IMG/VR virus record: IMGVR_UViG_3300010367_000056
Location: 1 to 64,000 of that record
Direction: 5' to 3' (one strand)
DNA from: a virus
Lineage: Duplodnaviria; Heunggongvirae; Uroviricota; Caudoviricetes
DNA: 64,000 nt
This document shows, one piece after another, positions 515-47,190 of the stretch (its first letter is position 1; each line of letters starts with the position of its first letter). A program made the position numbers and the translations under genes. The notes beneath the pieces are model-generated. The model searched no databases. It was given only the letters and a program-made list of their open reading frames with translations, and was not told where the DNA came from.

Positions 515-1838
515 TAGAATTAGTTTGTTCTTCTTCCATGTCTTTAGTACCTTTATCTAAAGCACTAGATTCATGAGCTAAAAACTTTTTAGATTTTATT
601 TTGAAAATCAATGGTTTAGGATAATTGTCAATTCTTACACAGAATCCTTCTTCTACTATATTCTTATCAAGAATACTTGGTTGTTCAAGTAATTGATTAT
701 AGAATATATCTTCTATTTCAGTAGCAATATCACAAGTGTTTATATTCACGTTTTTATGCTTAAGAATAAACTCTTGTACAGTTCCTCTGAAATATTCAGG
801 ACAAGGAATGAATCCCATCTGACAACCTCTTTCAACCATAAAATTATAAGGAAGATCTATCTCTATACCTTGAGAATTAATATTAGATATTCTGTAAATA
901 TAAGCTATTGGTTCATCAAATCCATAAGAATATCCTCCTTGAATTTCTTCTCCACCATAAGTCTTACCTACAATCTCAAAATAAACAGCTTCTCCTTTAT
1001 TAAGTTCACCTTGAAAGTTTTTCTTAGCGAACTCAGACCAAAGATCTCCTTCTTTAAAATAATGTTGCTTACCAGGAATTTCTTCAAATCCTACTGATTT
1101 CACAACTCTCCTAGAAGCTGCTACATATTCATAATCCTCTTCAACTACTTTAATACCAAACCATTTAGCTAGTCTTTCTTTCCATGATAATTTTCTTTTA
1201 ACTAAAGTATGAAATACTCTGGCAGAAGTACCATGAAGCTTATAACTAACTACTATGAAAGTATCCAGAGCCAATTTATGAAGATTTTTCATTAAATGGG
1301 CTGTATCCATGTGTTCTGGAGCCATCTTAGAATCAATAATATCATCTAAGACTTTAGCTCTAGGGTTACTAAATCCAGTTTTACCTGGATTCATCTTTCT
1401 GATATACTTTTTACAAATTTCAATTCCATCGAGTTCATTAAATTCGTCTCCAACTTTTAAACTAGTTATATCTGTATTCTCACATACAGTAACTAAGCTC
1501 GCAATTGGCATAATGAATCCAGAGCTTATTACACCTTTAAACTTAACTGCTTTTACTCTTCCATTATCTTCAAAGAATCCTGGTTTTGTTCCAGGTTGAG
1601 AATTTAATGCAAAATGTCTAAATAAGTTATTTTCTCTTAAGAATTTAGCACTTATCTGACACTCTGAAGGGAAGAACAAATAAAGCTCATCTTCTGGTGA
1701 ATCTTTACCAACCAACACTGAATTACCCTGATAAGTAACCTCCATTAAGTTATCTAATCCATTAACTTTCTTTTTGGTAGGTAGGTTTATAACTTGACAG
1801 GTATAATTCTTACTATCATCATATATTTTCAATTGCAT
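492..1838 (-). CDS. RNA ligase, Rnl2-like
   Basis: Nucleotidyltransferase motif I KLHGTSARV (compare T4 Rnl2 KIHGTN). Motif IV-like EGFCVR and motif V-like KIKSKKF are also present. It is adjacent to the kinase, as in phage tRNA-repair modules. Confidence 0.65.
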   Translation of the reverse strand: MQLKIYDDSKNYTCQVINLPTKKKVNGLDNLMEVTYQGNSVLVGKDSPEDELYLFFPSECQISAKFLRENNLFRHFALNSQPGTKPGFFEDNGRVKAVKFKGVISSGFIMPIASLVTVCENTDITSLKVGDEFNELDGIEICKKYIRKMNPGKTGFSNPRAKVLDDIIDSKMAPEHMDTAHLMKNLHKLALDTFIVVSYKLHGTSARVFHTLVKRKLSWKERLAKWFGIKVVEEDYEYVAASRRVVKSVGFEEIPGKQHYFKEGDLWSEFAKKNFQGELNKGEAVYFEIVGKTYGGEEIQGGYSYGFDEPIAYIYRISNINSQGIEIDLPYNFMVERGCQMGFIPCPEYFRGTVQEFILKHKNVNINTCDIATEIEDIFYNQLLEQPSILDKNIVEEGFCVRIDNYPKPLIFKIKSKKFLAHESSALDKGTKDMEEEQTNSNEETSNN

Positions 1839-2083
1839 TATCTCTTCATAACTCTTAAAAGATTCTGTTCAATATGTTCAGGTATATTACTTTCTCTACA
1901 TAGATAATCTTCATTTATTTGTTTACTAAATTGGGGTTTTCCAAAGTAATGTACATCACCTTTGTCAAACTTTAAATTTGTAATTATATAAGTTGACCAT
2001 AATCTAGCTAAAGTATCATATACCTGAATTTCAGATCCTATTTTCAAGAAATAAACCTTCTTTTCTCCTTTAATCTTAAACAT
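1838..2083 (-). CDS. hypothetical small protein (MFKIK N-terminus)
   Basis: ORF translationally coupled to its neighbours. Its N-terminus is MFKIKGEK. Confidence 0.4.
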   Translation of the reverse strand: MFKIKGEKKVYFLKIGSEIQVYDTLARLWSTYIITNLKFDKGDVHYFGKPQFSKQINEDYLCRESNIPEHIEQNLLRVMKR

Positions 2084-2303
2084 ATTCTACTAATTTAATT
2101 TTACCAGTAATAATATGTTCTTTAAAAAACTCTAATCCACATATATGAGTAAGTTTATCAGAATTAATAGGTTTTCCCCAAATCCTCTTTCCGAGATTAT
2201 CATTATCTTGGAACTCTGTTATAACATAACATGCACCTCCAATTTCAATAACATCTCCTATTTCAGGATTTTTTGGAGGTTTTAAGTTAATTTTAAATTT
2301 CAT
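2076..2303 (-). CDS. hypothetical small protein (MKFKINLK N-terminus)
   Basis: ORF in the operon context. Its N-terminus is MKFKINLKP. Confidence 0.4.
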   Translation of the reverse strand: MKFKINLKPPKNPEIGDVIEIGGACYVITEFQDNDNLGKRIWGKPINSDKLTHICGLEFFKEHIITGKIKLVEYV

Positions 2304-2311
2304 AGTAAAAT

Positions 2312-2347
2312 ATTAAAAATAAAAAGCCCAGGATAGAAATCCCAGGC
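2312..2347 (-). terminator. intrinsic terminator downstream of dut (minus strand)
   Basis: Minus-sense RNA folds GCCUGGGA-uuucua-UCCUGGGC (8 bp including 2 G-U pairs), followed by UUUUUAUUUUU. The plus-sense strand cannot fold. Confidence 0.55.
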
Positions 2348-2372
2348 TTAAAACAAAAAGGAGTATGTACAA

Positions 2373-2870
2373 TTATTTTCCAGTATGACCAAAACCACCT
2401 TCTCCTCTTACAGTAATACCCAACTCTTCCTCCTTTTTCAAAGGAATCATTCTCATATGAATGTTAACTTCTACAGAAGCTTGAACTGCTCTATCACCTA
2501 CTTTATAAGGACAATCATCATAAATGAAACCTAAAGGTAATCCAGTAAACTTATCTAATTTAATTCCTTGAGGAATAGCCTGAAATCTAACCTTCCACTC
2601 TCCTCTAAAATCAGAGTCTATTACACCGGGAGAATTTTGCATAACCCACCCTTTGTGTGTAAAGGAGCTTCTTGGCATTACAAAAACTTTATATCCATCA
2701 GGAATCTCAGTTGAAAAGCCGAACTTGAGAGTCACCTTATCCTCATCCTCATAATCAATCTCAGTTACAACTAAATCAACACAGGCAGCTCCATGAGTTT
2801 GATACTGAGGGATTACAGCTTTTTCATGTAGTTTCTTAAACTTAACTGGTACTGCAAGTCTTGGTTTCAT
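2373..2870 (-). CDS. dut: dUTP pyrophosphatase (dUTPase)
   Basis: Motifs AACVDL, GVIDSDFRGE and a C-terminal RGEGGFGHTG, typical of trimeric dUTPases. Confidence 0.9.
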   Translation of the reverse strand: MKPRLAVPVKFKKLHEKAVIPQYQTHGAACVDLVVTEIDYEDEDKVTLKFGFSTEIPDGYKVFVMPRSSFTHKGWVMQNSPGVIDSDFRGEWKVRFQAIPQGIKLDKFTGLPLGFIYDDCPYKVGDRAVQASVEVNIHMRMIPLKKEEELGITVRGEGGFGHTGK

Positions 2871-2872
2871 AA

Positions 2873-7317: not shown

Positions 7318-8487
7318 TTATGCTTCTTCTTCATCACTTTCTTCCTCATCTGTTTCAATCTCTATCTTATAATAAGGGTGGTTGGCCATTGCTGCTTCAA
7401 TCAGGTGTTTCAGCTCATCAAGATCACTTGCAGAGAATTTACCTGCGGAAGCATAATTACCTACCAATTTTTCAATATCAGCCATTGCTTTTTCAATCTG
7501 AGTTTCATTGGTCATACCAGAAATCAGATCCACTTTATCCATAACTTGGCGTTTCTCAGGGCTTAACAGCTCTTTGGACAGTTTTTCAGCAGTGGTTTTG
7601 TTAACCAACAGCTCACAAGCTTTAATCAGGGCCTTATCTATAGAGCAATTATAAACCAGAGAAATGGCTTTTGCCATACGAGGAACTTTAGACATGGTTC
7701 TATCAGAACACTCTTTATAAGCAACATTAGTAAATTTCTCCAGTTTGTCAGGAGCAATTTTTACTGCTTTAATTTGAGTTTCTGTAGGAATATTTACCTT
7801 GATTTTGGTAGTATAATCCTGGTCACCATTTTTATAATATTTAATAAGTTCACCTGCTTGTAAGCGATTTACTGTAATTTTCAGTAAAAACCTATCCCAA
7901 AAAGGAGAATCAATCTCATCTTTAGGAATTTCATTACAAGTAGCCACAAACAGCTTCCAATTACACTTAGTTTTGGTTTTACCATTGAACAAAACTCTTT
8001 CATTCATGATACCCAAGAAAGCGTTTCTTAAAGCTGAAGATGACTTATCAATCTCATTTACAATAACAGTGTCAGCTTTAGTGATTGGAGAGTCAATTAC
8101 ATATTTATTATTAGTAACCAATTGTTCCAGATCTACCACACCTTTTACTTCTGAAGACTTAGTACCTTCATCAGTTTCCAACATATACACACCATCTTCA
8201 TTGAAGTGTTGAATATGATCAGGATTTGTAAGATCAAACATACCTTTGGTATAATCTACCACAATGTTTGTTTTACCTACACCTGGCTCTCCTACAAGGA
8301 GAATAGGAAGCTTCAAAGATTCTGCTAATGCTAACAGTTTAAAGATCTCTTCCTTACCCATTAAGGAAGTTTGAAATTCACGATTACCGGTTTTAATAAC
8401 AATTGGATTTTGCATAGGAATTACACTTGTTGATTCTACTTCGATTTTAGTTGTTTGTTCTACTGGTGCTAATGTTTCTTGACTCAT
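7318..8487 (-). CDS. MoxR-family AAA+ ATPase (AAA_5)
   Basis: Walker A LLVGEPGVGKT, Walker B VIVNEIDK, sensor VATCNEIP and a FWDRF motif. Confidence 0.8.
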   Translation of the reverse strand: MSQETLAPVEQTTKIEVESTSVIPMQNPIVIKTGNREFQTSLMGKEEIFKLLALAESLKLPILLVGEPGVGKTNIVVDYTKGMFDLTNPDHIQHFNEDGVYMLETDEGTKSSEVKGVVDLEQLVTNNKYVIDSPITKADTVIVNEIDKSSSALRNAFLGIMNERVLFNGKTKTKCNWKLFVATCNEIPKDEIDSPFWDRFLLKITVNRLQAGELIKYYKNGDQDYTTKIKVNIPTETQIKAVKIAPDKLEKFTNVAYKECSDRTMSKVPRMAKAISLVYNCSIDKALIKACELLVNKTTAEKLSKELLSPEKRQVMDKVDLISGMTNETQIEKAMADIEKLVGNYASAGKFSASDLDELKHLIEAAMANHPYYKIEIETDEEESDEEEA

Positions 8488-9287: not shown

Positions 9288-9542
9288 TTAACCTGTAATT
9301 AACTCATAATGACCTTCAATAAACTTACGAGTTAAATCTTCTTCTTTCCAAGTACCTCTACTATCACCTGTACCAGCTTTATATAGGTCTTCATCACTAT
9401 ATACTTTATATAAGTTTTCTTTAGTATGAGAAATTTTATGAAATCTTATATTATATATAAGACTATCAGCATCTTTAACCCTAAACTTAGCATTGTGATA
9501 TTTCTTTTCAGTCTTCTGTTCTTTAAGTTTAATCTTGAACAT
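9288..9542 (-). CDS. hypothetical small protein (MFKIKLK N-terminus)
   Basis: ORF with N-terminus MFKIKLKEQK. Confidence 0.4.
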   Translation of the reverse strand: MFKIKLKEQKTEKKYHNAKFRVKDADSLIYNIRFHKISHTKENLYKVYSDEDLYKAGTGDSRGTWKEEDLTRKFIEGHYELITG

Positions 9543-9543: not shown

Positions 9544-10569
9544 CTAAAGTAATTTCTTGATCTTTAAATAGTTTTTCATAGTATCGAGATCTTTTTCTTT
9601 CACGAGATCTGACCAATCTTTAATACCTTCTCTTCTAAAAACTTTAGGTACATTGACATAGTTGAACCCATAATTTTTAGTATAGTAGGTGCTGGCCTCT
9701 ATTCCAGCATCATCGTTATCATATGCAATGAAGACATTTTTTCTTTCATATCCTTTTGTTATCCATTGCATATTTTCATCATTAATGCTGGCACTGCTTT
9801 CATTTTGAGTACTACATACATCTGGAAAGAATTTTGACATTATTATTTCATCTTTTACTGATTTAGTGATAATTAATTTATCACTCTGCTTACCAGTAAA
9901 GATTTTGTGTTTAATCTCATCAAATCCAGATATGTGATCATTAGGACATGAAGATATCCATTTGTACTTTTTACTATGTGGAGAATATATTTTAAGATGC
10001 TGATCAAATTGATAAGCAAATCTTAATTCTTTTTCATAATTTGGAAGCAGTTGTTTATTGATATATAATTTATCAATACTATATATTAATTTTCTTTCTA
10101 ATTCCTCTTTATAAATTTCATATTCTTTCCACCATTTTAGTTCTTCAAAGGTAAAATCTCTAGGGATAATTTGGATAAGCTTGGCTTGCTTGTGGATAGA
10201 GTCTGGTCTTTTAGTAACCTGGATTTTAAAAACGGGGTTCGCGTCTTGGAGACCAAGACCAAAATCTTCATCAATCTTCTCTAAGACTTGATAAAAATTT
10301 AAACCAAATATATGACCAACGAACTTGAAACAATCACCTCCTTTACCAGATGCAAAATCCTTAAATAGAATTTCATCATTATCTCCAATAAAGAAGCAAA
10401 GATTAGGAGTATTGTCAAAGCCCTTATCTCTAAATGGAGATGGATACTTCTTCTTATAATCAAAGTCTTGTCCTAAGTAATGTCTTATTATATTGTAGTC
10501 ATCAACTTTACTGAGAATCAATTCTTTATTTAATTTACCCTCTTTCCTGACTGTTTTCCCATTAATCAT
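9544..10569 (-). CDS. DnaG-like DNA primase (degenerate zinc-binding region plus Toprim)
   Basis: SPFRDKGFDNTPNLCFF...FKDFASGKGGDCFKFVGHIFG resembles the DnaG zinc-ribbon region CPFH..TPSF...CFGCG. The Toprim-like YDNDDAG is present. Replication-module context. Confidence 0.5.
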   Translation of the reverse strand: MINGKTVRKEGKLNKELILSKVDDYNIIRHYLGQDFDYKKKYPSPFRDKGFDNTPNLCFFIGDNDEILFKDFASGKGGDCFKFVGHIFGLNFYQVLEKIDEDFGLGLQDANPVFKIQVTKRPDSIHKQAKLIQIIPRDFTFEELKWWKEYEIYKEELERKLIYSIDKLYINKQLLPNYEKELRFAYQFDQHLKIYSPHSKKYKWISSCPNDHISGFDEIKHKIFTGKQSDKLIITKSVKDEIIMSKFFPDVCSTQNESSASINDENMQWITKGYERKNVFIAYDNDDAGIEASTYYTKNYGFNYVNVPKVFRREGIKDWSDLVKEKDLDTMKNYLKIKKLL

Positions 10570-10796
10570 ATCTCACTTGGATTTGTATCATGCAGTGTCC
10601 AATCATTATTCAAATTACTCTTGATGTATTCGAGTCCAAGATCTGACATAATGATCTCTTGCTCACCATGAGTTTTCTGAACATAATAGTTTCCTTCTTT
10701 GTAATATATTAGTTTATATATACTTCCATTCTTAGTTTTAAGAAACTTTCCATCAAATACTGCACAAATTTTAATAGGCTTAATTGTAAACTTCAT
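10566..10796 (-). CDS. hypothetical small protein (MKFTIKPIK N-terminus)
   Basis: ORF overlapping its neighbour by 4 nt. Confidence 0.4.
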   Translation of the reverse strand: MKFTIKPIKICAVFDGKFLKTKNGSIYKLIYYKEGNYYVQKTHGEQEIIMSDLGLEYIKSNLNNDWTLHDTNPSEI

Positions 10797-11820: not shown

Positions 11821-12672
11821 TTATTCTTCAACAAAGATTTTCTCCCACTCAAAAACACCTTCATAAGATCCGACTTCTCCTCTATTACCACCTGTCTTAT
11901 CCTCATTACCCTTGAATGAAATCTTTAATTCTTCCTCGTCTTTGTATACAGAGCCTATTGCACTTACATTCCTAGCATAAATATCAGCTACTGCGCCTGT
12001 AAGAGCTATGTCTTTCACAAAAACTTCTCCTTTGTCTCCTTTAGATAACATTTTATCTTTTATGTGACATACATAAATGAAACATTTGTTAGCACATTGA
12101 CGACTAAGATTAAGAAGATCAACCATTACAGTTCTTGACCATCTCCAACCATTCTGACCTATTTCAATAACTGATTGATATTCAGTATCTCCATATTTCA
12201 GTCTTGGCCATTGAGTTGATGGTTTACCTTGTAGTGGTTGACGATTAAAAGATTTACCTTGAAGACTTTCCATATATAGTTCAGTACCAGCCCACTCAGC
12301 ATCCATATCTGCTTGAGTAATAGTATCTAAACTAACAAAGTCATAAGGTTTTCCAAGTTTAATGAGTGCATTGAGAATCCTAGTTAATGCTTTATGGCGT
12401 TCTGAAGGATCTAATATATCAGCTATATCTAAGACTTTAGTCTTTACATCCAGAGTTAATAACTCGGTAATGTCTTTAACAGAAGCTGATAAGATTCCAG
12501 AACAATCAATTACATCAACACCATCAAGAAAATCACAACCATTTTTCTCCATACTGATAATAAGATTATTCTTCAGTTTGGTTAGCATTGTTGATTTTCC
12601 TACTTTAGGTTTCCCTGAATAAAGCAAAGTGTCAGGATTACGTCTTCTCTTTTTTACTTGGAATGTACTCAT
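11821..12672 (-). CDS. RecA-fold ATPase, Sak4-like (AAA_24)
   Basis: Walker A LLYSGKPKVGKST. About 280 aa. Replication/recombination context. Confidence 0.45.
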   Translation of the reverse strand: MSTFQVKKRRRNPDTLLYSGKPKVGKSTMLTKLKNNLIISMEKNGCDFLDGVDVIDCSGILSASVKDITELLTLDVKTKVLDIADILDPSERHKALTRILNALIKLGKPYDFVSLDTITQADMDAEWAGTELYMESLQGKSFNRQPLQGKPSTQWPRLKYGDTEYQSVIEIGQNGWRWSRTVMVDLLNLSRQCANKCFIYVCHIKDKMLSKGDKGEVFVKDIALTGAVADIYARNVSAIGSVYKDEEELKISFKGNEDKTGGNRGEVGSYEGVFEWEKIFVEE

Positions 12673-16158: not shown

Positions 16159-16887
16159 TTAAATATCATGTACATGTCTCTTCTTACTTCTGATTTTCTC
16201 TTCTCCCTTAATAAAATCAGGATTTTCTTTATGCATCTCTAAATAAGGACGATAAGTTTCTTGATTAAGATAAGCTTCCATTCCTTTAAAGAAATCCATT
16301 TGATTGGTGTTTTTCTTTACACTATCAAGTTTCTTGAGTTTTATCTCATAAAGTAAAGCTGACATTAAATCTTCATGCTTAAATCCTTGATTTAGAAGCT
16401 TCAAATATCTTTTCTTAGCTTCAGGTTTCCTTAGATTTTTAGGATTTCTGCTACCTAAGAATGCTATTCCATCATCAGATGTCCAAGCAGTGGATTTTGG
16501 ATAAGTCTTCCACCATTCTTCAAACATATCTTCTTCTGTCTTACCAAGATCTATCATAATTCCTCTTGCACTCATATTTTCAGATATTTGTACTGGCGGA
16601 TTAAGTAAATCTTCAATAAGATTTTTTCCTTTTACAGATATTACCAATTTAGAAGCATCTTCTGGATCTTCAACAATATATTCTAGCTTTTTCAGATTCT
16701 GGAGACTAATAGATAGATTTAAATCTTTAAGGCTTGGTATGGTGTAGACATTTAAAAATTCTCTATCATTCTCATAGTAGAAGCATTCAAGGATAAATAG
16801 ACTATTGAAGTCTAAATTATTCTCTCGTAGTTTCTGTATGAGAGTCTTGCTTTTCTGAATAAACTTCGATTCTTGTTTCTCTTCCAT
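16159..16887 (-). CDS. hypothetical protein
   Basis: ORF in the operon. Confidence 0.45.
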   Translation of the reverse strand: MEEKQESKFIQKSKTLIQKLRENNLDFNSLFILECFYYENDREFLNVYTIPSLKDLNLSISLQNLKKLEYIVEDPEDASKLVISVKGKNLIEDLLNPPVQISENMSARGIMIDLGKTEEDMFEEWWKTYPKSTAWTSDDGIAFLGSRNPKNLRKPEAKKRYLKLLNQGFKHEDLMSALLYEIKLKKLDSVKKNTNQMDFFKGMEAYLNQETYRPYLEMHKENPDFIKGEEKIRSKKRHVHDI

Positions 16888-17062
16888 CTTTCACTTCTAT
16901 TTTTGTGTAATCTGTATTTAAAACTCCCTCACTTACTAACTTGAGATATTCTTCATACTCCTGGTCTTTTTTAAGAGAATCATCTCTCATCCATTCTCTT
17001 TCTATATCTTCATCTCCATGTGGATAATGAACTTTCATGAATTCCTCCTTCATTTTTCCCAT
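16817..17062 (-). CDS. hypothetical small acidic protein
   Basis: ORF overlapping the upstream gene. Confidence 0.35.
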   Translation of the reverse strand: MGKMKEEFMKVHYPHGDEDIEREWMRDDSLKKDQEYEEYLKLVSEGVLNTDYTKIEVKDGRETRIEVYSEKQDSHTETTRE

Positions 17063-17064
17063 AT

Positions 17065-17700
17065 TTAAATTTCCTTTCCATCTTGCTTGAAAATTCTACT
17101 TTCTAATAGGGAACAGATTGTTATAGACTTAGCATATTTCTCTTTATCTCTATATGGATCTATTGTCATAAACTTAACATTAGGATTTCTATCTGAAAAG
17201 TCTTTCAACATATCCAGTTCTTCTTTCTTAATACCAAGTCTCTTACATTTCTCCTCTGTCCAATTCTCTCTGTAATCTTGATCAAATATCTTCATCCAAT
17301 GTTCTTGGTCATGATCTACATCTAATTTATCTAATTGAGGTCTTTTAAATACATCTATTAGATATTTCCATGCACTATTGATCTTACCATTGAAATCAGG
17401 TGAGATAAACATAACAAAATCAGGATCAAATTTTTCAACTGTACTGATATTCGCTATAATATGACATAGATTAAGTAGAACTTTAAGAGTTAAATCTTCT
17501 ATAGAATTAACAAGAACAGTATCCTTAATACTTAATAACTTCTGAGGATCTTTTATTCCATTGCCATACATAATTCTATATGTATAAACAGCTTCTCTTT
17601 TAAGTCCTCTTTTATAATGCATTTTTAAGAATATTGTTAAACTATGCTTCTTCTTAACATCATTACCATTCTTGGTCTTCAATTTAATATTGAACAACAT
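17065..17700 (-). CDS. hypothetical protein (MLFNIKLK N-terminus)
   Basis: ORF with N-terminus MLFNIKLKTK. Confidence 0.45.
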   Translation of the reverse strand: MLFNIKLKTKNGNDVKKKHSLTIFLKMHYKRGLKREAVYTYRIMYGNGIKDPQKLLSIKDTVLVNSIEDLTLKVLLNLCHIIANISTVEKFDPDFVMFISPDFNGKINSAWKYLIDVFKRPQLDKLDVDHDQEHWMKIFDQDYRENWTEEKCKRLGIKKEELDMLKDFSDRNPNVKFMTIDPYRDKEKYAKSITICSLLESRIFKQDGKEI

Positions 17701-17962
17701 AATCTCTCAATTTCTCTGGTATTGTAAACTCTGCACCTGGTTCTGTAACAATATATCTTCCTGATAAGATAGTCTTTTGAAGAAAATTTACTGTATAAGG
17801 ATCTGGTATTATATGTAAATTTCCACTTGGTTCATCATAATAACCTATTTTTAGTTGTCCATCAACTATTTTAGAGGTCTTAAAAATAGTTAAACCATAT
17901 TTAAAATACATATTTTCCCTAACAAGAACTTCTTCTTTTATTTTAGTCTTTATCTTGAACAC
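17684..17962 (-). CDS. hypothetical small protein (MFKIKTKIK, probable GTG start)
   Basis: ORF whose first codon at 17960-17962 is GTG. Confidence 0.35.
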   Translation of the reverse strand: MFKIKTKIKEEVLVRENMYFKYGLTIFKTSKIVDGQLKIGYYDEPSGNLHIIPDPYTVNFLQKTILSGRYIVTEPGAEFTIPEKLRDYVVQY

Positions 17963-18242
17963 AGGGATAAGATTTTAATAGTTCAGGTACTCTAAAATGT
18001 TCTTCAATAGGACAAATAAGCATTTCTCCCTTCATAAGCTCATTAATATAAGAAGATATTCTACTGGTAAGAGGATCAGCTACAGCTAATCCATCTTGAT
18101 ATAACCAAACAAAAGTAAATTGATCAGCTTTTAAATCTGTTCTTATAATCTTATACCAATCTTTTGGATCTTCAGCACCAGGAAAATAAAAATAGCAACC
18201 AGACTTTAATCTACAAGCCATTTTTAATTTAAAATTAAACAT
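17943..18242 (-). CDS. hypothetical small protein (MFNFKLK N-terminus)
   Basis: ORF in the operon. Confidence 0.35.
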   Translation of the reverse strand: MFNFKLKMACRLKSGCYFYFPGAEDPKDWYKIIRTDLKADQFTFVWLYQDGLAVADPLTSRISSYINELMKGEMLICPIEEHFRVPELLKSYPCVQDKD

Positions 18243-18252: not shown

Positions 18253-20184
18253 TTAATGACAATCAGCATAACTATGACCAAAATCCATAGAAATTCCTAA
18301 AGGTACATTCAGTTTAATCTGCTCATTTACAGATTTAATGGAGTCTTCAAGTTTATTAATAATTTTCTTTCTTTCTTGAGCATTATTAATAATTCTAAAT
18401 AAGATTTCATCATGCATTTGAAGTGAAACTTTAATTCCTCTCTTTCTCACTTCTCTCACATAATTGTCAAAACACCATACACCAGTTCCCTGATTTAGTG
18501 TAGAGAATCTATCCTTCTCAGCTCTTAAAGAATACCAAAATTTGCTTACTGGATTGTAAAGCCATTTTTGATTTCCCACATTTTTGACTGTACAGCTATC
18601 TGCAACCTTCTTAACACTCTCATTCCTTTTCCAGTAACCATCCAAAAGCTTCTTAGCTTCTTTGGTTGAGATGCCAATTTCTCTCGCAAGTTTTTCTGCA
18701 CCCACACCATATATGGATGAGAAATTGGTAGTTTTAGCCTTATGTCGCTTGGTTTTGATCTCCTCATACTTCTTTTTATCATCTGCTTCTTTATTAAAGT
18801 TTTTATAAAAATCAACTTCCTGTTGTGTTATAAGTCCACTCCTTACTCCAATATCCAAATGTGGATCAAATCCAGGAGTTCTCATTTCTAACACATACTT
18901 GGGATCATAGAAATACATATAATGTTGCTTAGTAGTATCTTCCAAAGAAGACATATCAGAGCCACATAGTATTTCTCCATCATCAGCTATTAAACTACCT
19001 CTAATTTCCTTACCATATAGTTTGTCAATACCTGGAAGATTTACAATATTTACATGTTTTAATCTTAAAGTATTGGTGAGACCACCTAAACTTGGTTCAA
19101 TAAATCCATCTACTTGGTTTTCAAGGAACCCTTCAAGAATAGCTATTCTATGAGAAATTACACTAAGTCCTTCTAAAACTTCTAGTCTAGGTTCTTTTAC
19201 AAACAACTTCTTAACAGAATCACATACAGATCCGTCTTTCTTGTTACTTCCTATCTGAGGAATTTTCCTAACCTTACCATCATCATCTTTCTCATATTTG
19301 AAGTGTTCTGGAACCCATCCCATATCAAATAGCCAAGCTTTCTTTTGATCATTTGAATTTGGATTTGGATCTTTATAACCTTTTATCAATTCAACTTCAT
19401 GTTCAAACTTAGGTTTATAACCTTCTCTGAAATAGTAATCATAAAGTAAATCTCCTTTGGAATAAAATTCTCCTGTATCAAGTACAATTGCATTCTTATA
19501 CTTTTTCTTAATCTTAACAGCAACCTTTGGCATAGCTGATCTTAACACATTTTCTTTATTCTCTTTTTCTCTCTTCAGCTTCTCCAGGTTATCCTTTATA
19601 AAAGGAATGTTAAGCTTAATCTTTACTTCTTCTTGTTCTCTTACACACTCAAGCTTAAATTGTAGATAGTTTATTAATCTATCCATCTCACTTAAGTCAT
19701 TGTCATATAAAGTGTTAAGAAGTGCTTTACATCTCTCCCATAATTCAAGATTAATTTTAGTATCTTCTTCACATCTGTGAATATACTCTTCAACAGTTAA
19801 ATTCTGCCAATCTTTAATTTCTACTTTATGTATCCCAAGATCATATCCCCAATGTTCAAGACCATGTTTAAGCCTGTCAGGAAACAAATACCATGAAAGA
19901 GCAAGAGTATCAATGATTTGATCAAACGAATTATTTGTATCTATGCCAAGAAACTTTTTAATGATTCTTTCATCATATAAAGTAATATTATGACCTATTC
20001 TAAGAATATCTTCTCTTAAAAAGAATTTTCTCATATCATCATAATCAGCTGTACTTTTTACTCTGATATTACCATTATAATCTCTCCAAGCTATACTTAA
20101 ACAGTGAATCTTAGTAGCACTATCAAGAAGTCCATCACACTCAATATCATATACATACTCAGGTTTTCCTAGTCTTATCATCAA
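18253..20184 (-). CDS. family A DNA polymerase with 3'-5' exonuclease domain
   Basis: Exo I YDIECDGL. Pol A motif B RHKAKTTNFSSIYG (R..K..F..YG). Motif C LQMHDEILF. Confidence 0.8.
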   Translation of the reverse strand: MMIRLGKPEYVYDIECDGLLDSATKIHCLSIAWRDYNGNIRVKSTADYDDMRKFFLREDILRIGHNITLYDERIIKKFLGIDTNNSFDQIIDTLALSWYLFPDRLKHGLEHWGYDLGIHKVEIKDWQNLTVEEYIHRCEEDTKINLELWERCKALLNTLYDNDLSEMDRLINYLQFKLECVREQEEVKIKLNIPFIKDNLEKLKREKENKENVLRSAMPKVAVKIKKKYKNAIVLDTGEFYSKGDLLYDYYFREGYKPKFEHEVELIKGYKDPNPNSNDQKKAWLFDMGWVPEHFKYEKDDDGKVRKIPQIGSNKKDGSVCDSVKKLFVKEPRLEVLEGLSVISHRIAILEGFLENQVDGFIEPSLGGLTNTLRLKHVNIVNLPGIDKLYGKEIRGSLIADDGEILCGSDMSSLEDTTKQHYMYFYDPKYVLEMRTPGFDPHLDIGVRSGLITQQEVDFYKNFNKEADDKKKYEEIKTKRHKAKTTNFSSIYGVGAEKLAREIGISTKEAKKLLDGYWKRNESVKKVADSCTVKNVGNQKWLYNPVSKFWYSLRAEKDRFSTLNQGTGVWCFDNYVREVRKRGIKVSLQMHDEILFRIINNAQERKKIINKLEDSIKSVNEQIKLNVPLGISMDFGHSYADCH

Positions 20185-26056: not shown

Positions 26057-26062
26057 ATTATT

Positions 26063-26314: not shown

Positions 26315-26316
26315 AA

Positions 26317-27084: not shown

Positions 27085-27086
27085 TA

Positions 27087-27386: not shown

Positions 27387-28471
27387 TTATTCTTAGTAAG
27401 TTTATACATAACTTTCTTCTTAGATTTAATGTTTTCATCGTCATCGTACTCATAAACCAGTTCCTCATATATAATCTTATCTCCATCATTATATTTAAGC
27501 TCAGCATGATAGTTAACATTTGGAATATAATGACTTATATGATCAATCTCATGAGGAAGAGGTTTGTTAAGTTCAACTTCTTCTTGATATTCCCACTTAT
27601 TCTCAATCATAACATATTTGTTATATGATTGTTTTCTCTCATGGAAATTAAATATATCCTTAAAAGTAGAATATGGCTTTCTATGTACATTGATCTCATC
27701 AATAATTGATGTTAAGATGTCAATTGTGCAATCAGGAATATGAAGATTATCTTCAAGATCCTTAGCAAATTTCTTATTCTTAAGTTTATCTGCTACAATA
27801 GCATGAAATACTTCAGGATTCATGAAATTATATTTCTTATAATATCTGATCCTTGAAGGTCTATCAAGAAGTTTGTCACTCACATCATCATTACAAGTCA
27901 AAATAGTTAATCTCTTATGCTTAGGAGTGAATGTACCATCAAGCAAGCTTAAAAAGCTACTTTGAGTATGAAACTTATTCTCAGCATCATTAGCTACAGG
28001 AGCTGGAAATAATTTCTCAAACTCATCTACAAATAGACAATAATCTTGTTTAATTTGTTGAAGATAACTAGAGAAGTCTGCAATTTTTGGAATAACTCCA
28101 TTAATACAAACAATTGGTAATCTACTCTCAATTGCTAATTGTTTAGCAGTTACTGATTTACCTTGACCTTTATAACCAATAAGACCAACACCAATATTCA
28201 TATTAGCTTGGCTAAGTCTTAGTGTAGTAAGAACTTGATTTCTAAACTCTTGGTCAAAATCATAGATTCTAGGTGGAAGTGTAAGAGCTTGTCCTTTTGT
28301 CATCCACATTTCACCATATACATGATCTACATTAAAATTATAAACCTGACCTGGTTGTAGCTCTTCTGTAATTATCACAGCATCAGGATAGAAATTCATT
28401 CTACCCATTGATTCAATAATAGTCATCTTACCTGGTTTGGTAATATGATGTTTAGCTAACGGTTGTGACAT
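27347..28471 (-). CDS. AAA+ ATPase
   Basis: Walker A GLIGYKGQGKSVTAK and Walker B LFVDEFEKL. Confidence 0.55.
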   Translation of the reverse strand: MSQPLAKHHITKPGKMTIIESMGRMNFYPDAVIITEELQPGQVYNFNVDHVYGEMWMTKGQALTLPPRIYDFDQEFRNQVLTTLRLSQANMNIGVGLIGYKGQGKSVTAKQLAIESRLPIVCINGVIPKIADFSSYLQQIKQDYCLFVDEFEKLFPAPVANDAENKFHTQSSFLSLLDGTFTPKHKRLTILTCNDDVSDKLLDRPSRIRYYKKYNFMNPEVFHAIVADKLKNKKFAKDLEDNLHIPDCTIDILTSIIDEINVHRKPYSTFKDIFNFHERKQSYNKYVMIENKWEYQEEVELNKPLPHEIDHISHYIPNVNYHAELKYNDGDKIIYEELVYEYDDDENIKSKKKVMYKLTKNKWSTSKPSMDMVL

Positions 28472-28479
28472 AATAATTA

Positions 28480-29007
28480 TTACGGATTTTGAAGTTTTGT
28501 TTTTTGTGCTAATGCAATCTTTATAATAGGATTTGCTTTTGCAACATTATGTTGGTTAGTAGCTTGAGCTAATGAAGACATCATTCCTTGTAAATTCTCA
28601 GGAACCATTGGTGTTCTCTCATTAGCATAATAAGTTGGCATTTCTTGATCACCTTCCACAATTTTATAGCCATCAGCAAGATACCATTCTAATCTTTTAA
28701 GAAAGTTCTTTTGAGCATCATGATCTGTGTTGTAAATGAGTGGAGTAGTAGCCTCTACAATATGTTTATCATCTTTGATAAATCCTTTGTAGAATTTAAT
28801 GACTGACTCTTTTTTAAGTCCCTTACTGACCATATTACCCTCAGCATCAAACTCATCTGGAGTCTCCTCTCTTACCCATAATCTCTGCATATGAACAAAA
28901 GATGGCATATCTCCAACCTCTAATCTTTGCAGCATTAACCACTCTGTGGTATTATCTGTTACATCAAAATCCCCAACCTTTTTTGATGCTTTTTTAAGTC
29001 TAAACAT
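28480..29007 (-). CDS. hypothetical protein
   Basis: ORF. Confidence 0.45.
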   Translation of the reverse strand: MFRLKKASKKVGDFDVTDNTTEWLMLQRLEVGDMPSFVHMQRLWVREETPDEFDAEGNMVSKGLKKESVIKFYKGFIKDDKHIVEATTPLIYNTDHDAQKNFLKRLEWYLADGYKIVEGDQEMPTYYANERTPMVPENLQGMMSSLAQATNQHNVAKANPIIKIALAQKTKLQNP

Positions 29008-29018
29008 AGTTTTGAATT

Positions 29019-29339
29019 TTAAAATTTAGTATCATTTGTAGGTTCTGTCACCCTAACATAATCCTTTTCGAGTTTTTGTTTTACCTTCTTAGCTAAATGC
29101 TTCTCAGCATCTTCAAAATATTTAAATTTATGATGAATCTTAGTACCTTCAGTACCTATTCTACCAAAGTGAAACTCAACTAAATAAGGAAAATCACTCA
29201 TCTTATCAGGATTATCTTTTATATACATATAATAATACTTATAATGAGTACTAGTTTTACATTCAAGATAAGTACCTGTAGTTGAGAATCTAGCTTCTAT
29301 TTTCTTTAACTTAATTCCCAAACTAAATGGTTTTTCCAT
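29019..29339 (-). CDS. WGR-domain-like small protein
   Basis: FHFGRIGTEGTK...KFKYFEDAEKHLAKKVKQKLEKDY resembles the WGR motif and its fold context. Confidence 0.35.
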   Translation of the reverse strand: MEKPFSLGIKLKKIEARFSTTGTYLECKTSTHYKYYYMYIKDNPDKMSDFPYLVEFHFGRIGTEGTKIHHKFKYFEDAEKHLAKKVKQKLEKDYVRVTEPTNDTKF

Positions 29340-37994: not shown

Positions 37995-38597
37995 CTATTT
38001 TTCTTCATCCTCCATGAAATTGTCATCTCTTCCATAAGGATTCTCTTTTTTCTCTTTTTGCCACATTTTGACTACAGCATTAGCTGTTGACATATCTGGT
38101 TCACCATAAGTTCTACTATCATGTAAATCATTATGTTCATGTTTAGAACTATCTACATTTCCACCACTCACATGAAATGTGTTATTAACAGGTAAATATG
38201 AATTACCATAATCATCTTTTCTCCTACCTCTTTCAGATAATACTAATACCACAGCTCCCATACCACATACTAATCCTAGTATTCCAAGTGCCAATAGTAC
38301 ATCATTATGATTATCATGATATACTATTTGTGCTGGCTGATCTTGATATCTCACAGGATATGCAGGAATAGGTAATTGTGGATAATTATTATACTCAGGT
38401 AATTGAATATTAATAATCTTTGGTTCCACATCCCTCCTTATAAATGTTTTCTTTAACTGTCTTTTAGCAGGAATTACAATCTTCATATCGCCCCCGACTA
38501 AGATAGTATCTCCTTTTTCAACAGTAATTAGTTTAGTTTGCGCATCTAATTGATACACAGTAATAACAAACATAGTAAATACAACAAACTTTTTCAT
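37995..38597 (-). CDS. membrane protein with signal peptide and internal TM helix
   Basis: Signal peptide MKKFVVFTMFVITVYQLDAQ. TM helix LLALGILGLVCGMGAVVLVL. Confidence 0.5.
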   Translation of the reverse strand: MKKFVVFTMFVITVYQLDAQTKLITVEKGDTILVGGDMKIVIPAKRQLKKTFIRRDVEPKIINIQLPEYNNYPQLPIPAYPVRYQDQPAQIVYHDNHNDVLLALGILGLVCGMGAVVLVLSERGRRKDDYGNSYLPVNNTFHVSGGNVDSSKHEHNDLHDSRTYGEPDMSTANAVVKMWQKEKKENPYGRDDNFMEDEEK

Positions 38598-38681
38598 AAA
38601 TAAAAGTTTAAATGATTAATAATATAAAAGGAGAGAAATTAATCTCCCCTTTTACTAATTATGAAGCAATACCTATGAAGA

Positions 38682-39065
38682 CTACTGATATTTGGTAATA
38701 GTTACCTTTGAATATTGTGTTTTACCATCTATATCTACAGATTTAATCCTTGAATAGATAGTTCTAACATCTTTAAACCAATGAGTTACATCTACTTGTG
38801 CAGTGTAGTTATGTGATAATCCACCAGTTTCAGACATTAATATAAATCCTGTAGTCCAATCACCAGGATTATTAACATTACCAGTAGTAGATATTTCTAT
38901 CTCATACTGTTTAACATTAATTTGATCATCAACACTAAATTCATAATTCAAATATGAATTCTGATTGCTAATGATATCATCATGATTAGCTTTACATGAT
39001 GGTAAAAATGATATAGCACCTAATATAAGAGCTATAACTGTGCTTGTATACAAAAACTTTTTCAT
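38682..39065 (-). CDS. putative lipoprotein
   Basis: Signal peptide ending ...LPSC, with Cys at about residue 24. Confidence 0.45.
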   Translation of the reverse strand: MKKFLYTSTVIALILGAISFLPSCKANHDDIISNQNSYLNYEFSVDDQINVKQYEIEISTTGNVNNPGDWTTGFILMSETGGLSHNYTAQVDVTHWFKDVRTIYSRIKSVDIDGKTQYSKVTITKYQ

Positions 39066-39089
39066 ACTAATAACTTTTAGGGTTTAGGG

Positions 39090-40019
39090 TTATTTTTTAC
39101 TGTGGGATAAGGTTACTGTGATACTCTTAATAGTCACTGGTAATGAAGTATTCGCAGGCCAATATCCTGTTGCTAAATCTGAAATATCAGACTCAGATTT
39201 CATTAAACTACATTTTACAGTACCAATACCATTAAAATTAGTGGTAGTTTGGTCTATAAAGTATAATCCTGAACTAGTAGACAAATATGCAGAACCAGTA
39301 CTAGCAAATGCAAACCCATTTACAGTTCCACCAAATTGTGTACCATCAGATTTCCTTAAATCCCATTTAGAACTAATACTATTAACACTACTACTATTAG
39401 CAGATGCAAGACTAGTAAGAGAGATAGTATAGATCTTCGTTGAGCCGGAGCCATTGTTTGCAAGAATAAATAAGGTATTAGACGCAATAGCAAGGTCACC
39501 ATTAATAAAAATACTATTAGTGTTGTCATTTGTATTTAATTTACCTCTTTTATTGACATTTACACTTGGATTAGATAAACTACCATTCCAAGTAAATGTA
39601 CCAATATAAATACTATTAGAACTAGATGATTTGGATACAATATATCCTACACCATTCTGATCAATACCTAATCTTACATAATCAAGATCAACATCACCTG
39701 ATGCAATATCAGCATTGTTCATGATTTTAACATAAGATCCAGTACCATCAGCTTTTCTAGCATATATATCCACATGATCATCAGTAGTATATTGTAATGT
39801 AACAATATAACCAATACCATTGAATATTCCATATCCTAGAGCAGCAGTTTGATCTACACTCATAGAACCACCAAATGAACCTGTAGCAGATCCAGTGGTT
39901 CCATTAGCTGTAATAGATTTGACTGCTTGTGAACTAAAAAATGCACCATAGATTTTATCTTGTGCATTAGTTGATATTACCAATAATGATAATACAATGA
40001 TTGAGAACAACTTTTTCAT
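39090..40019 (-). CDS. secreted Ser/Thr/Gly/Asn-rich protein (beta-rich, adhesin-like)
   Basis: Signal peptide MKKLFSIIVLSLLVISTNAQ. Repetitive S/T/G/N composition. Confidence 0.5.
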   Translation of the reverse strand: MKKLFSIIVLSLLVISTNAQDKIYGAFFSSQAVKSITANGTTGSATGSFGGSMSVDQTAALGYGIFNGIGYIVTLQYTTDDHVDIYARKADGTGSYVKIMNNADIASGDVDLDYVRLGIDQNGVGYIVSKSSSSNSIYIGTFTWNGSLSNPSVNVNKRGKLNTNDNTNSIFINGDLAIASNTLFILANNGSGSTKIYTISLTSLASANSSSVNSISSKWDLRKSDGTQFGGTVNGFAFASTGSAYLSTSSGLYFIDQTTTNFNGIGTVKCSLMKSESDISDLATGYWPANTSLPVTIKSITVTLSHSKK

Positions 40020-40218
40020 GATTGTTTTTTATTAGAGTTTAGAATTAACAATTTAAGTTGTTTCTCATAGTATATTGATTATGAAATAAATAGAAAAAAC
40101 CCCATATAAAAATACAGGGTTTTAACGATTGCTTGCCATTGAAAAATCAAAATCTTCTATTCCAGCCACATATTATGACAGTAATAACTCTATTTAATAC
40201 AAGTAATACAAGTGAATA

Positions 40219-40626
40219 TTATCTATGAACTAATGTTGTTAGTTCTGAATGTTCTTCAATAAGGTTAAGAGAATCTTCTCTATTACCAAGAAATAGATTT
40301 CTTGGAATAGTTTTACCAGTATATCCTAAATGAATATCACCACCATCATCTATAAATACAGCCATTAGGTCTATATTTTTATCATCATACCACGATACTT
40401 GTGATATTTCATCAGGTATATCTAATCTATGTCCTTCTAAATATTGATATGAGCTATCAACAAAAAAGTCTTCAGGTGCCAACATTGAGTTAACATCATT
40501 ACTTAATTGGTTGATAACTTTCTCATCCTGTTGGTATTGATATCCTTTACCAACTAAAAAACCAATACAAATTAAAAAGGTAATTGCTAATATTTGCAAT
40601 ATACCTAAAGTTGTTTCCTTTTTCAT
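40219..40626 (-). CDS. membrane-anchored protein
   Basis: N-terminal TM helix LGILQILAITFLICIGFLVG. Confidence 0.45.
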   Translation of the reverse strand: MKKETTLGILQILAITFLICIGFLVGKGYQYQQDEKVINQLSNDVNSMLAPEDFFVDSSYQYLEGHRLDIPDEISQVSWYDDKNIDLMAVFIDDGGDIHLGYTGKTIPRNLFLGNREDSLNLIEEHSELTTLVHR

Positions 40627-45627: not shown

Positions 45628-45784
45628 AGAGCCAAGATGGGAACCATTTATTGAGCGTAAATTTAGAGATTGCTTTTATGGTAATATTACCAAAGAAGAA
45701 TATGATTTAGCTGAACAATATGTGGCAGAAGGAAAGAGTTATAGTATGACATTTCAGGAGTGGTTAGAGAAAAAGAATATTTGA
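45596..45784 (+). CDS. hypothetical small protein
   Basis: ORF overlapping the upstream gene by 32 nt. Confidence 0.35.
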   Translation: MFMTNGEDKNKEPRWEPFIERKFRDCFYGNITKEEYDLAEQYVAEGKSYSMTFQEWLEKKNI

Positions 45785-45785
45785 T

Positions 45786-46013
45786 ATGTTTAAGATTCAT
45801 TTGAAAGCGAAATTTACTAGAGAAGATATTTTAGCAATGTCAGGAGATATTATTGTATGCAGTCTTCCTGAAGGAGATAAAAGAGAATTTTATGTAAAAT
45901 CCATTACTTCTAATGGAGTTATTATAGGGACATTTACAGATAATATTAATCCTACTATTGCTTGGCCATATGGAGAAAATTATAATAGAATTTGTGCAGT
46001 AGTAGAACATTAA
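45786..46013 (+). CDS. hypothetical small protein (MFKIHLK N-terminus)
   Basis: ORF. Confidence 0.4.
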   Translation: MFKIHLKAKFTREDILAMSGDIIVCSLPEGDKREFYVKSITSNGVIIGTFTDNINPTIAWPYGENYNRICAVVEH

Positions 46014-46114
46014 GCTATATTAAGAGTTATAAAGCGATTATATTCTGGTATGTGAGAAGTTAATGCAAGGAGATTATTTTAGTTTTACAGTGTTGAAAAC
46101 CAATAGATAAATAG

Positions 46115-46483
46115 ATGGAAAGACAAACAATAGTGAAGACAATTAAGAAGTCTTTTGCTAATAAAATTAAAGCGGGGATTACCTGGTTCAGATTTATGGC
46201 TGCTATTAATGATATTAAGTTGACTAAGCGTGAACTTGAGTTACTTTCTTTTATTAATCTTAGAGGTACTATTTCCTCTCTTCAAGCTAAAGAGGAATTT
46301 GTTAAGATCTTTGAATCGTCTTCAGCTACTGTATCTAATATGATTGGCCCTTTAATAGAGAAGAAGTTCTTAGTGAAGGATAAGTCTAAAGTACGAATTA
46401 ATCCTTCCTTAAGGGTAGATTTCTCTCATAACTTTGTAGTGCGATTTTTTATTGATATTGAAACCAATGAAGATGGAAATTAA
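46115..46483 (+). CDS. winged-helix (MarR/BlaI-like) DNA-binding regulator candidate
   Basis: LTKRELELLSFINLRGTISSLQAKEEF...ATVSNMIGPLIEKKFLVKD is consistent with an HTH plus wing. Confidence 0.4.
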   Translation: MERQTIVKTIKKSFANKIKAGITWFRFMAAINDIKLTKRELELLSFINLRGTISSLQAKEEFVKIFESSSATVSNMIGPLIEKKFLVKDKSKVRINPSLRVDFSHNFVVRFFIDIETNEDGN

Positions 46484-46850
46484 AGAAGAGTTATTAGATA
46501 TTGAAGATATTAAGCGTAGTAGGAAACCATTGATTGATTTGTTTATTAGAAGGACTGCTGTAATTAATCAGACTTCTGAAGATTTAGTAGACTTAATTAT
46601 AAGGGATCAGTGGAGAAATATGCTGAAGGTCGCAAGTAGCGATACTCTAGTAAGTGAGCTAGATGTACCAATGATAGGTTTACTTAAACTTAGTAGAACT
46701 AAAGCTAATAAGAAAATTGGTTTATATGAACGTAAATTAGAAACATATAAATCTAATATGTCAGAAGATGAAAAGCGTAGAGAGAAACAACTGACTCACA
46801 TGCAGAAGTATGAGAAGCTTATTAATAATATTAAATATAAACTAAGATAA
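46452..46850 (+). CDS. hypothetical protein
   Basis: ORF. Confidence 0.4.
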   Translation: MILKPMKMEIKEELLDIEDIKRSRKPLIDLFIRRTAVINQTSEDLVDLIIRDQWRNMLKVASSDTLVSELDVPMIGLLKLSRTKANKKIGLYERKLETYKSNMSEDEKRREKQLTHMQKYEKLINNIKYKLR

Positions 46851-46851
46851 A

Positions 46852-47190
46852 ATGAAATTCAATATCAAGCATATTATAGAAGGAGTTACTAATAGTATTT
46901 TTGTAAGAGAAGAAGTAGAGAAGATAGCTGAATACAGACATGATATTTGTAAAGCATGTCCTAAAAATTCTAAGGTTATTGCTGAACAAAAATCACTACA
47001 TTTTGATACTGTAGAACCAGGCCCTTATTATTCAGAGATTAGACCTGATGAGCATTGTTCAATGTGTGCATGTAATATTCATGCAAAAGTTAGAAGTTTA
47101 CACACTGACTGTCCTATTGACAAGTGGGAAGCTGTAGCTTCAAAAGAGGAAGCAGCTAAGATTGCTGCGGCTATTGATGGAAATTCATAA
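46852..47190 (+). CDS. Cys-rich (zinc-binding?) small protein
   Basis: CKACPKN...HCSMCACNIHAKVRSLHTDCP. Confidence 0.4.
   Translation: MKFNIKHIIEGVTNSIFVREEVEKIAEYRHDICKACPKNSKVIAEQKSLHFDTVEPGPYYSEIRPDEHCSMCACNIHAKVRSLHTDCPIDKWEAVASKEEAAKIAAAIDGNS

Follow-up and report, generated by a model that had tools for sequence, protein, structure and literature searches.

The 64,000 nucleotides (nt) analysed here, called the window throughout, are positions 1 to 64,000 of the IMG/VR virus record IMGVR_UViG_3300010367_000056 (Caudoviricetes), and they carry a short, lysine-rich N-terminal motif, close to M-F-K-I-K-L-K, that recurs at the start of a set of proteins encoded mostly among genes of replication and recombination. 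The window has a GC content of 31% and 105 called genes, which are read from the minus strand as far as about 44.7 kilobases (kb) and from the plus strand beyond; the minus-strand part encodes an RNA ligase, a dUTPase, a primase, two helicases, a Sak4-like ATPase and a family A DNA polymerase, and the plus-strand part encodes terminase, portal and major capsid. The terminase is 27–34% identical to those of Crassvirales, Flavobacterium, Cellulophaga and Bacteroides phages, a distant kinship, and no close cultured phage relative was found; the source is an uncultured, crAss-related phage, represented by a metagenomic contig of 125 kb. To our knowledge, almost nothing is known of how the replication module is organised in crAss-related Bacteroidota phages.

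The original prediction had drawn attention to eleven N-termini resembling this heptapeptide, on what it took to be unrelated small proteins. All eleven translate as written, the one at 17962 from a GTG start. Ten belong to real carriers and the eleventh, at 46852, does not; two further carriers (11821–12672 and 28480–29007) had been missed, so that the final list holds 12, of which 11 lie below 30.3 kb and one at 45786. The description as small proteins does not hold for the gene at 17065–17700, which encodes 211 amino acids (aa). The consensus may be written M-(0–3 residues)-F-[K/N]-[I/V/L/F]-K-[L/I]-K, and in about 60% of carriers it is followed by a short basic stretch and a proline. The carriers, the DNA polymerase that anchors the locus and the one false positive are as follows.

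1838–2083, minus strand: carrier, 81 aa, start MFKIKGEK; an orphan gene (ORFan) in tandem with 2076–2303 (8-nt overlap), with no Pfam or PHROG match.
2076–2303, minus strand: carrier, 75 aa, start MKFKINLK; probable member of a small SH3-like family, with the C-terminal motif FFKEHIITGKIKLV.
9288–9542, minus strand: carrier, 84 aa, start MFKIKLKE; accessory gene straight after the primase, C-terminal motif present.
10566–10796, minus strand: carrier, 76 aa, start MKFTIKPIK; occupies the slot before the primase.
11821–12672, minus strand: carrier absent from the first list, Sak4-like/AAA_24 ATPase (PHROG_124, E 3e-13; PF13479), start MSTFQVKKRR (MSTFQVKKRRRNPD).
17065–17700, minus strand: carrier, 211 aa, start MLFNIKLKTK (MLFNIKLKTKNGND); conserved protein, encoded after the DNA polymerase and the small-gene array.
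17684–17962, minus strand: carrier, 92 aa, GTG start, (M)FKIKTKIK; small, probably SH3-like family, array copy 2.
17943–18242, minus strand: carrier, 99 aa, start MFNFKLKM; small, probably SH3-like family, array copy 1, directly after the DNA polymerase.
18253–20184, minus strand: family A DNA polymerase (PHROG_17, E 6e-102), anchor of the locus with the tandem small-gene array, used to fetch related loci.
21797–22054, minus strand: carrier, 85 aa, start MFKINLKP; CxxC-containing family with 13 homologues.
28480–29007, minus strand: additional, weaker carrier, 175 aa, start MFRLKKASKK (MFRLKKASKKVGDF), also absent from the first list.
29323–29589, minus strand: carrier, 88 aa, start MFKFKKQPK; orphan gene, C-terminal motif present, no profile signal.
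45786–46013, plus strand: carrier, 75 aa, start MFKIHLKA; orphan gene upstream of the terminase, no profile signal.
46852–47190, plus strand: not a carrier (false positive), 112 aa, start MKFNIKHI; Cys-rich family conserved beside the terminase, weak PHROG matches.

The last of these was rejected as a carrier on the evidence of its own family, more than 50 homologues of which start MKINFSQIYEGW, MSLGQIIEGW and similar. That family (about 100 aa, Cys-rich, with the N-terminus MKINFSQIYEGW) lies just upstream of the terminase in more than 50 loci (L070–L148 among the related loci), many of them from crAss-related phages.

Recurrence was counted with the pattern F[KNT][IF][KNH], its first residue at position 2–4, among the 105 called genes. 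Eleven genes have it, against means of 0.18 when residues 2–9 were pooled and shuffled and 0.34 when each peptide was shuffled within itself, and none of 3000 shuffles reached 11 (Poisson P ∼1e-13); the claim that the motif recurs beyond chance is thus borne out. Internal matches numbered four in 18,061 positions (2e-4 per position), and the strict tripeptide FKI occurred 6 times with 0.2–0.3 expected. In loci centred on DNA polymerases akin to that of the window (40–53% identity, GC 25–41%), there was essentially no motif in about 800 genes, with none in most loci; terminase-centred loci had it in 2 of 1824 genes, and the background in other AT-rich phages is about 0.2% of genes. Because shuffles stay far lower and other phages whose GC is equal or lower are almost without the motif, composition is not the cause. 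A chance product of a composition rich in Lys, Ile, Phe and Asn would draw on the 31% GC of the genome and on the share of Lys (17%) and Ile (10%) in residues 2–8 of its proteins, but this explanation is refuted by the shuffles; loci of other phages at 25–34% GC stay at about 0.2%, orthologues keep the motif, and we give chance practically no weight. Relatives retain the motif on orthologous proteins, both in the loci of the clade and in the ∼210-aa and CxxC families described below.

By region, carriers make up 11 of 49 genes in 1–30.3 kb, none of 30 in 30.3–44.7 kb and one of 26 on the plus strand. The motif is restricted to one clade and, bar one carrier, to the replication/recombination module. 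This distribution bears on the comparison with the capsid-targeting sequences of T4 that had first been drawn. Like those, the motif would be an N-terminal address peptide on small, otherwise dissimilar phage proteins, and a packaging signal sending proteins into the prohead for injection, as with T4 internal proteins, would have the same position-specific placement. The T4 sequences, however, belong to virion components cut by the prohead protease, whereas the carriers belong to the replication module: by position and annotation their neighbours are genes for RNA ligase, primase, helicase, Sak4, DNA polymerase and dUTPase, on the strand opposite to that of the virion genes, and they include the Sak4-like ATPase. 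No conserved protease cleavage motif (L-x-E-like or other) follows the tag in the aligned families, and no structural-module protein has the motif. We therefore see only a very slight chance of capsid targeting; what stands of the proposed targeting signal is that the signal is favoured to act at the level of the peptide.

Whether the peptide or its messenger RNA is the object of selection is addressed by a survey of codon use in five genomes, covering 25 carriers. All but one of them retain Phe (TTT 15, TTC 9); Lys at position 2 is encoded by AAA in 10 and AAG in 8, and Lys positions generally mix both codons; the hydrophobic positions use ATT, ATA, TTT, CTT, TTA and GTT, with Leu written as TTA, CTT, TTG or CTA; and 0 to 3 codons separate the ATG from the Phe codon. 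Within the window, TTC makes up 38% of motif Phe codons versus 26% genome-wide and AAG 44% of Lys codons versus 34%, so the motif is not extra A/U-rich. The folding energy of the start region is the same in carriers as in other genes (−4.97 vs −5.27 kcal/mol), as is the number of upstream adenines at −14 to −10 (3.09 vs 2.95), and the upstream regions of carriers share no sequence beyond the adenine run that all genes have. Because synonymous codons vary, the offset varies and the upstream signals are ordinary, these data indicate that selection acts on the amino acids and not on an RNA element.

The original prediction had offered an A/U-rich enhancer of translation initiation, of the downstream-box kind, as one explanation. 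No fixed nucleotide sequence stands at a fixed distance from the start, and with codons that are not A/U-richer, an offset of 0–3 codons, and ordinary folding and adenine runs, such an enhancer is disfavoured. The motif is also absent from the capsid, portal, terminase and polymerase genes, and the highly expressed virion genes do without it. A role in compensating for a weak initiation region was considered and rejected, the upstream adenine run of carriers being equal to that of other genes. A related possibility is an RNA operator, AUG-UUY-AAR-AUH-AAR, bound by a phage translational repressor or nuclease, the peptide being a by-product; RegA of T4 binds AU-rich initiation regions of replication-gene mRNAs in this way. 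The clustering of carriers in the replication module would suit an operator, as would the DNA string ATGTTYAARATH, found 5 times with 0.78 expected and 4 of those times at gene starts. Nevertheless, codons vary freely in their third position, and those for Leu also in their first, while the amino acids stay, the spacing from AUG ranges over 0–9 nt, and there is no common upstream sequence besides the general adenine run; we consider an operator highly improbable.

The upstream signals themselves point to the host. In the 40 nt upstream of the 105 starts, a Shine-Dalgarno sequence is absent and an adenine run is present at −14 to −10, with A at 69–71% at −12/−11; G makes up 3–10%, and TAAA begins at −15 to −13 in 41 of the 105 genes. 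Baez et al. (2019) described initiation regions in Bacteroidetes as devoid of a Shine-Dalgarno sequence, with adenines running from −14 to −11, a signature that the starts in the window match. Because of this match, the translation signals suggest that phages of this clade have Bacteroidota hosts. A scan of GTDB representative genomes with the ∼210-aa family gave no match, hence no prophage or host clue.

In a host without Shine-Dalgarno initiation, one could envision the motif as an early-elongation ramp that raises the output of packed, translationally coupled genes. In E. coli, K or N followed by I or Y at codons 3–5 forms the best-expressing class, an effect that is partly at the amino-acid level and for which KIH and KFS are named as strong motifs (Verma et al. 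2019, PMC6920384). MFKIK, MFNIK and MFKIH all place K or N and then I at codons 3–4, one carrier begins with GTG, and 8 of the 11 listed genes start at most 10 nt from the upstream stop or overlap it, as compared with 37% of other genes. The close spacing also fits small genes inserted right behind conserved ones. The ramp, however, is general and depends on codon position, whereas the motif has a variable offset and an invariant Phe and is confined to one clade and module: in many orthologues the K-I pair has moved to codons 4–6 with the motif intact (MS[IL]FKIK, MGVFNIK). Neither the invariant Phe nor conservation through KTKNGND is explained by a ramp, the capsid, portal, terminase and polymerase genes do without it, the adenine runs and folding energies of carriers equal those of other genes, and phages of similar composition do not use the motif. 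We thus regard a ramp as rather improbable, and conclude that neither composition nor translation initiation accounts for the motif.

The motif also sits on conserved families. In the ∼210-aa family (the gene at 17065, with 80 homologues), the block M(x0-2)F[NSHK]IKLKTK[NAS]GN scarcely varies even at 33% identity, and the protein as a whole has 7 invariant columns, 5 of them among its first 13 residues; Pfam and PDB sequence searches found no relative of this family. In the CxxC family, represented in the window at 21797, all 12 full-length members start M(S[ILV] or PI)?FK[IV][NK][LI], down to 23% identity. When the profiles of the small, ∼210-aa and CxxC families were compared with hhalign, alignment was confined to the first 9–11 columns, and the CxxC profile aligned to the other two over 9–10 N-terminal columns only. 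The Sak4-like ATPase adds a fourth case: its start, MS.F.[IV]K.[KR]R..PD, is found in the window and in the four genomes read (L001, L002, L158 and L159), with MSTFTIKPKR, MSVFTVKRKR, MSSFKIKTKR and MSTFVVKKKR as the starts of clade orthologues, while the Sak4-like homologues of gut Crassvirales start MIVLPTEKVKAK or MIVLPTEKVKAKVNNPR, an equivalent tail that differs in sequence and is without the motif. Judged by these alignments, at least three, probably four, unrelated families of one module share the peptide, and since the background is about 0.2% per gene, the sharing would not be coincidence.

What follows the motif is also patterned. Of 37 carriers, 22 have a proline among the 10 residues that follow the core, as do 23 of 92 controls; this comparison includes orthologues, so that its P is optimistic, and it suggests a layout of motif, basic linker, proline and domain. 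Charged or polar residues follow the motif in all carriers, which is not the composition of a Sec or lipoprotein signal peptide, where a hydrophobic h-region of at least 10 residues comes after the basic n-region.

Among the small carriers, part of the resemblance is due to descent. Directly after the DNA polymerase, every clade genome examined has one to four tandem small genes, often with overlapping stops and starts, and then the ∼210-aa gene; the array has two copies in the window, one in L001, four in L002 and L154, one in L158 and four in L159, the tandem arrangement and copy-number variation expected of a paralogous family. Array members have in common an internal VGxYF, a Y-K-V strand and a C-terminal F.K.I..G.phi.phi (phi, hydrophobic residue), and a C-terminal phi..G.phi.phi accompanies the N-terminal motif in 11 of 19 carriers versus 9 of 67 others (Fisher P 2e-4, again optimistic, as orthologues are included). 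In the window the genes 17943, 17684 and 17065 are consecutive carriers that overlap by 20 and 17 nt (L053 and L156 were compared as well), so that the codons specifying the motif of each downstream gene are read, in another frame, as the C-terminal tail of the protein upstream; L053 and L156 have kept both the GTG start of 17684 and its overlap. Among orthologues of 17943, the differences come in whole hydrophobic-Lys units (MFNFKLKM, MFKLKI, MFKLKIKLDTKL).

All-against-all BLASTP among the carriers gave nothing significant, and neither Pfam nor PHROGs holds a family for any small carrier. An earlier leave-one-out profile from a mixed set was uninformative, its training alignment being heterogeneous, and was replaced by profiles from other genomes. 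One of these was trained on 15 array members, all from other genomes and trimmed of the motif, and was run against 3270 proteins minus their first nine residues. It ranked 17684 first (E 3.4e-5), 17943 second (E 6e-3) and 2076 fourth (E 0.07, borderline), with 9288 (rank 17) and 10566 (rank 26) within the top 1%, and it gave no consistent signal for 1838, 29323, 45786, 21797, 17065 or 28480. A top match of the small-family profile in L079 (5539–5976, plus strand) was spurious: to the eye it resembles an HNH/NUMOD4-type homing endonuclease, in the terminase region of a related phage. For 2076, hhalign against the L001 gene at 11930, with the motif removed, gave a probability of 48% (E 1.8e-4). 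The link of 1838 to the family is unstable, at rank 7–8 of about 3200 in two profiles and rank 343 in a third.

By these profile comparisons 17684 and 17943 are paralogues in one clade-restricted, tandemly amplified small-protein family, to which 2076 probably also belongs. The family is fast-evolving, 70–105 aa long, and has a probable SH3-like fold; in the AlphaFold2 model of 17943, the sole usable one, residues 1–11 lie outside the confident barrel and the N-terminus has low confidence. The family itself is absent from Pfam and PHROGs, and a word-indexed search of 5.8 billion proteins together with HMMER on 1.84 billion representatives returned only training sequences and close orthologues, so that it is restricted to the clade.

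These results could be taken to mean that the motif is the first beta-strand of one expanded family, kept by descent, and that the other starts are unrelated Lys-rich strands with no common function. In favour of this are the arrays, one to four genes long, that separate the DNA polymerase from the ∼210-aa gene, the recovery of 17684, 17943 and 2076 (with 9288 and 10566 close behind) once the motif is removed, the co-occurrence of the C-terminal motif, and the alternation of hydrophobic residues and Lys, which gives the look of an amphipathic edge strand. Yet the three family profiles have only about 10 columns in common, with a background near 0.2% four independent families in one module would be unexpected, the motif is missing from Sak4 homologues outside the clade, and 1838, 29323, 45786 and 21797 give no consistent family signal in the motif-free search. 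As an account of the whole pattern, descent from one family is in our view unlikely, although it is the most serious of the alternatives. Paralogy accounts for part of the recurrence in the window; in the remainder, proteins without kinship retain one and the same peptide. The original suggestion of a duplicated small-protein family thus holds for a subset (17684 and 17943, with 2076 borderline) and cannot explain the whole; its description of the downstream sequences as dissimilar fails for 17684, 17943 and probably 2076. The ∼210-aa, CxxC and Sak4-like proteins share only their first ∼10 residues with the small family.

Several carriers have few or no counterparts elsewhere. No orthologue of 9288 exists in any related locus examined, none of 29323 was found in related loci, and the closest terminase relative, L070, is without a counterpart of 45786. 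The AlphaFold2 model of 29323 was unusable (predicted local distance difference test score, 46.6). Directly downstream of 29323–29589, and overlapping it, is a small WGR-domain protein (29019–29339, minus strand; PF05406, E 6e-10). In the slot before the primase, occupied here by 10566, the genes of L001 (MSIFKCKLIS), L158 (MEFKIKRE) and L159 (MKFNIKKK) have kept the motif and little else, a different small protein being present in each genome and the motif always. This slot and the arrays after the polymerase differ strongly between genomes, such that the body of the protein turns over while the motif is retained.

Enriched, confined to one clade, conserved within families and bearing at the coding level the signature of selection on the peptide, the recurring start could be a recognition peptide read by a common partner. 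We favour this reading over the others tentatively, at somewhat less than an even chance, as regards both the role and the reader. Terminal motifs common to unrelated proteins usually point to a hub, as with the sliding clamp, the tail of single-stranded DNA-binding protein (SSB), ClpX tags or capsid targeting. The peptide would be carried by the ∼210-aa protein, the CxxC protein, the Sak4-like ATPase, the small tandem family and several orphan genes. As a beta-strand it would be amphipathic, with Phe, Ile and Leu on one face and Lys on the other, and in one version it would dock the carriers by strand addition to a hub protein of the replisome or the host. In a second version it would be an N-terminal degron for an AAA+ unfoldase or protease. 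A MoxR-type AAA+ ATPase (7318–8487, minus strand; orthologue in L159 at 16404–17558 with PF20030 bpMoxR/AAA_5) is conserved in the replication module of the clade and was considered as a possible reader, but nothing links it to the motif. A search for the reader gene through clade-specific gene content did not discriminate, nearly the whole module being clade-specific.

Known systems resemble the proposed peptide in part. The sliding-clamp-binding motif and the partners of the SSB C-terminal tail are cases in which unrelated replication and repair proteins dock to one hub; the likeness is that of one short terminal motif across otherwise unrelated proteins of that kind, and the difference is that the carrier sequence is unrelated to the QL[SD]LF or DDDIPF-binding systems. 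N-motif 1 of ClpX, reportedly described by Flynn and colleagues in 2003, is said to read polar-T/phi-phi-basic-phi, a loose pattern that the MS[ILV]FK[IV] variants (S-I-F-K-I among them) would fit and the MFKIK variants would fit in part. More broadly, ClpX N-terminal degrons are short peptides on unrelated proteins with a single AAA+ reader, and a phage replication protein, lambda O, is a classic substrate (PMC12723719); here, in contrast, conservation extends well beyond 5 residues in two families. The LAST motif of T4 gp32, (K/R)3(S/T)2 at residues 3–7, is an N-terminal peptide that docks onto the core domain of a neighbouring protein and confers homotypic cooperativity (PMC12893549). It too is short and basic, stands at the very N-terminus of a protein of phage replication and begins M-F-K-x-K, and we confirmed the N-terminus MFKRKST... 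on PDB 8gme_A. It belongs to a single family, however, whereas the present motif alternates hydrophobic residues and Lys (F-K-phi-K-phi-K), has no Ser/Thr pair and occurs on several unrelated families, and no carrier matches gp32 or any SSB family. Multi-copy ORFan families of large phages likewise consist of tandem, copy-variable, fast-evolving small paralogues between conserved replication genes, but here the N-terminal family signature also begins conserved proteins of this module that have no relation to the family.

A number of points weigh against a recognition peptide. The motif definition was sharpened once the data had been seen; the proline and C-terminal co-occurrence tests count orthologues as independent; and only one structure model was usable, with low confidence at the N-terminus. 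Conservation in the ∼210-aa and CxxC families spans 15–20 residues, which resembles a beta-hairpin built into a folded domain more than a free linear motif. Finally, orthologues of 28480 read ...PIFKFKKKETKKVGDF and MEEGKPIFKFKKTN, with the motif 7–8 residues from the Met, an offset more in keeping with a structural strand than with a tag at the terminus.

A still bolder and more doubtful extension of the recognition-peptide reading is that a family-level clade of crAss-related phages evolved its own address peptide, F-K-I-K-L-K, marking both conserved and newborn replication and recombination proteins for one partner. If so, new accessory genes would enter the network just by gaining a seven-residue start, and the phages would possess a short-linear-motif system comparable to clamp-binding motifs or to tags of the ssrA and lambda O type. 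As a recognition tag, the peptide would offer a bait for the hub, a means of detecting members by sequence only, and an example of how orphan genes are plugged into a machine. Were it a mere structural strand, it would still define a clade-restricted small family and two conserved families, each with a diagnostic N-terminus. The clade-specific N-terminal motif, the small tandem family and the two conserved families are newly defined here; a text search of the literature for MFKIK, MFKFK and MKFKI returned unrelated matches only, such as Bacillus signal peptides.

The window also encodes a transfer-messenger RNA (tmRNA) at 25630–26056 on the minus strand (Rfam RF00023, 74.6 bits, E 3.9e-27, the model being matched over its full length), for which ARAGORN predicts the tag peptide EDVDATLAQLFETELALA, followed by a stop. 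It lies within a minus-strand island of transfer RNA (tRNA) genes at 25110–33957, comprising Arg-TCT, Arg-TCG, Asn-GTT, Gln-TTG and three irregular tRNA-like genes. On the plus strand, a Trp/Cys tRNA pair at 47485–47637 is the sole match of the 44–64 kb part, the only part searched, to cultured phage DNA, at 80% to the tRNA-Trp/Cys of 'Sphingomonas' phage PAU. A second recurring N-terminus is found at 32781–40626 on the minus strand, where seven genes start MKK and, in six of them, a hydrophobic stretch comes next (MKKLVILTIAAILS, MKKWSLLFTIMMVT, MKKFVVFTMFVITV, MKKFLYTSTVIALI, MKKLFSIIVLSLLV and MKKETTLGILQILA); these starts, grouped in the tRNA region, look like ordinary signal or lipoprotein peptides.

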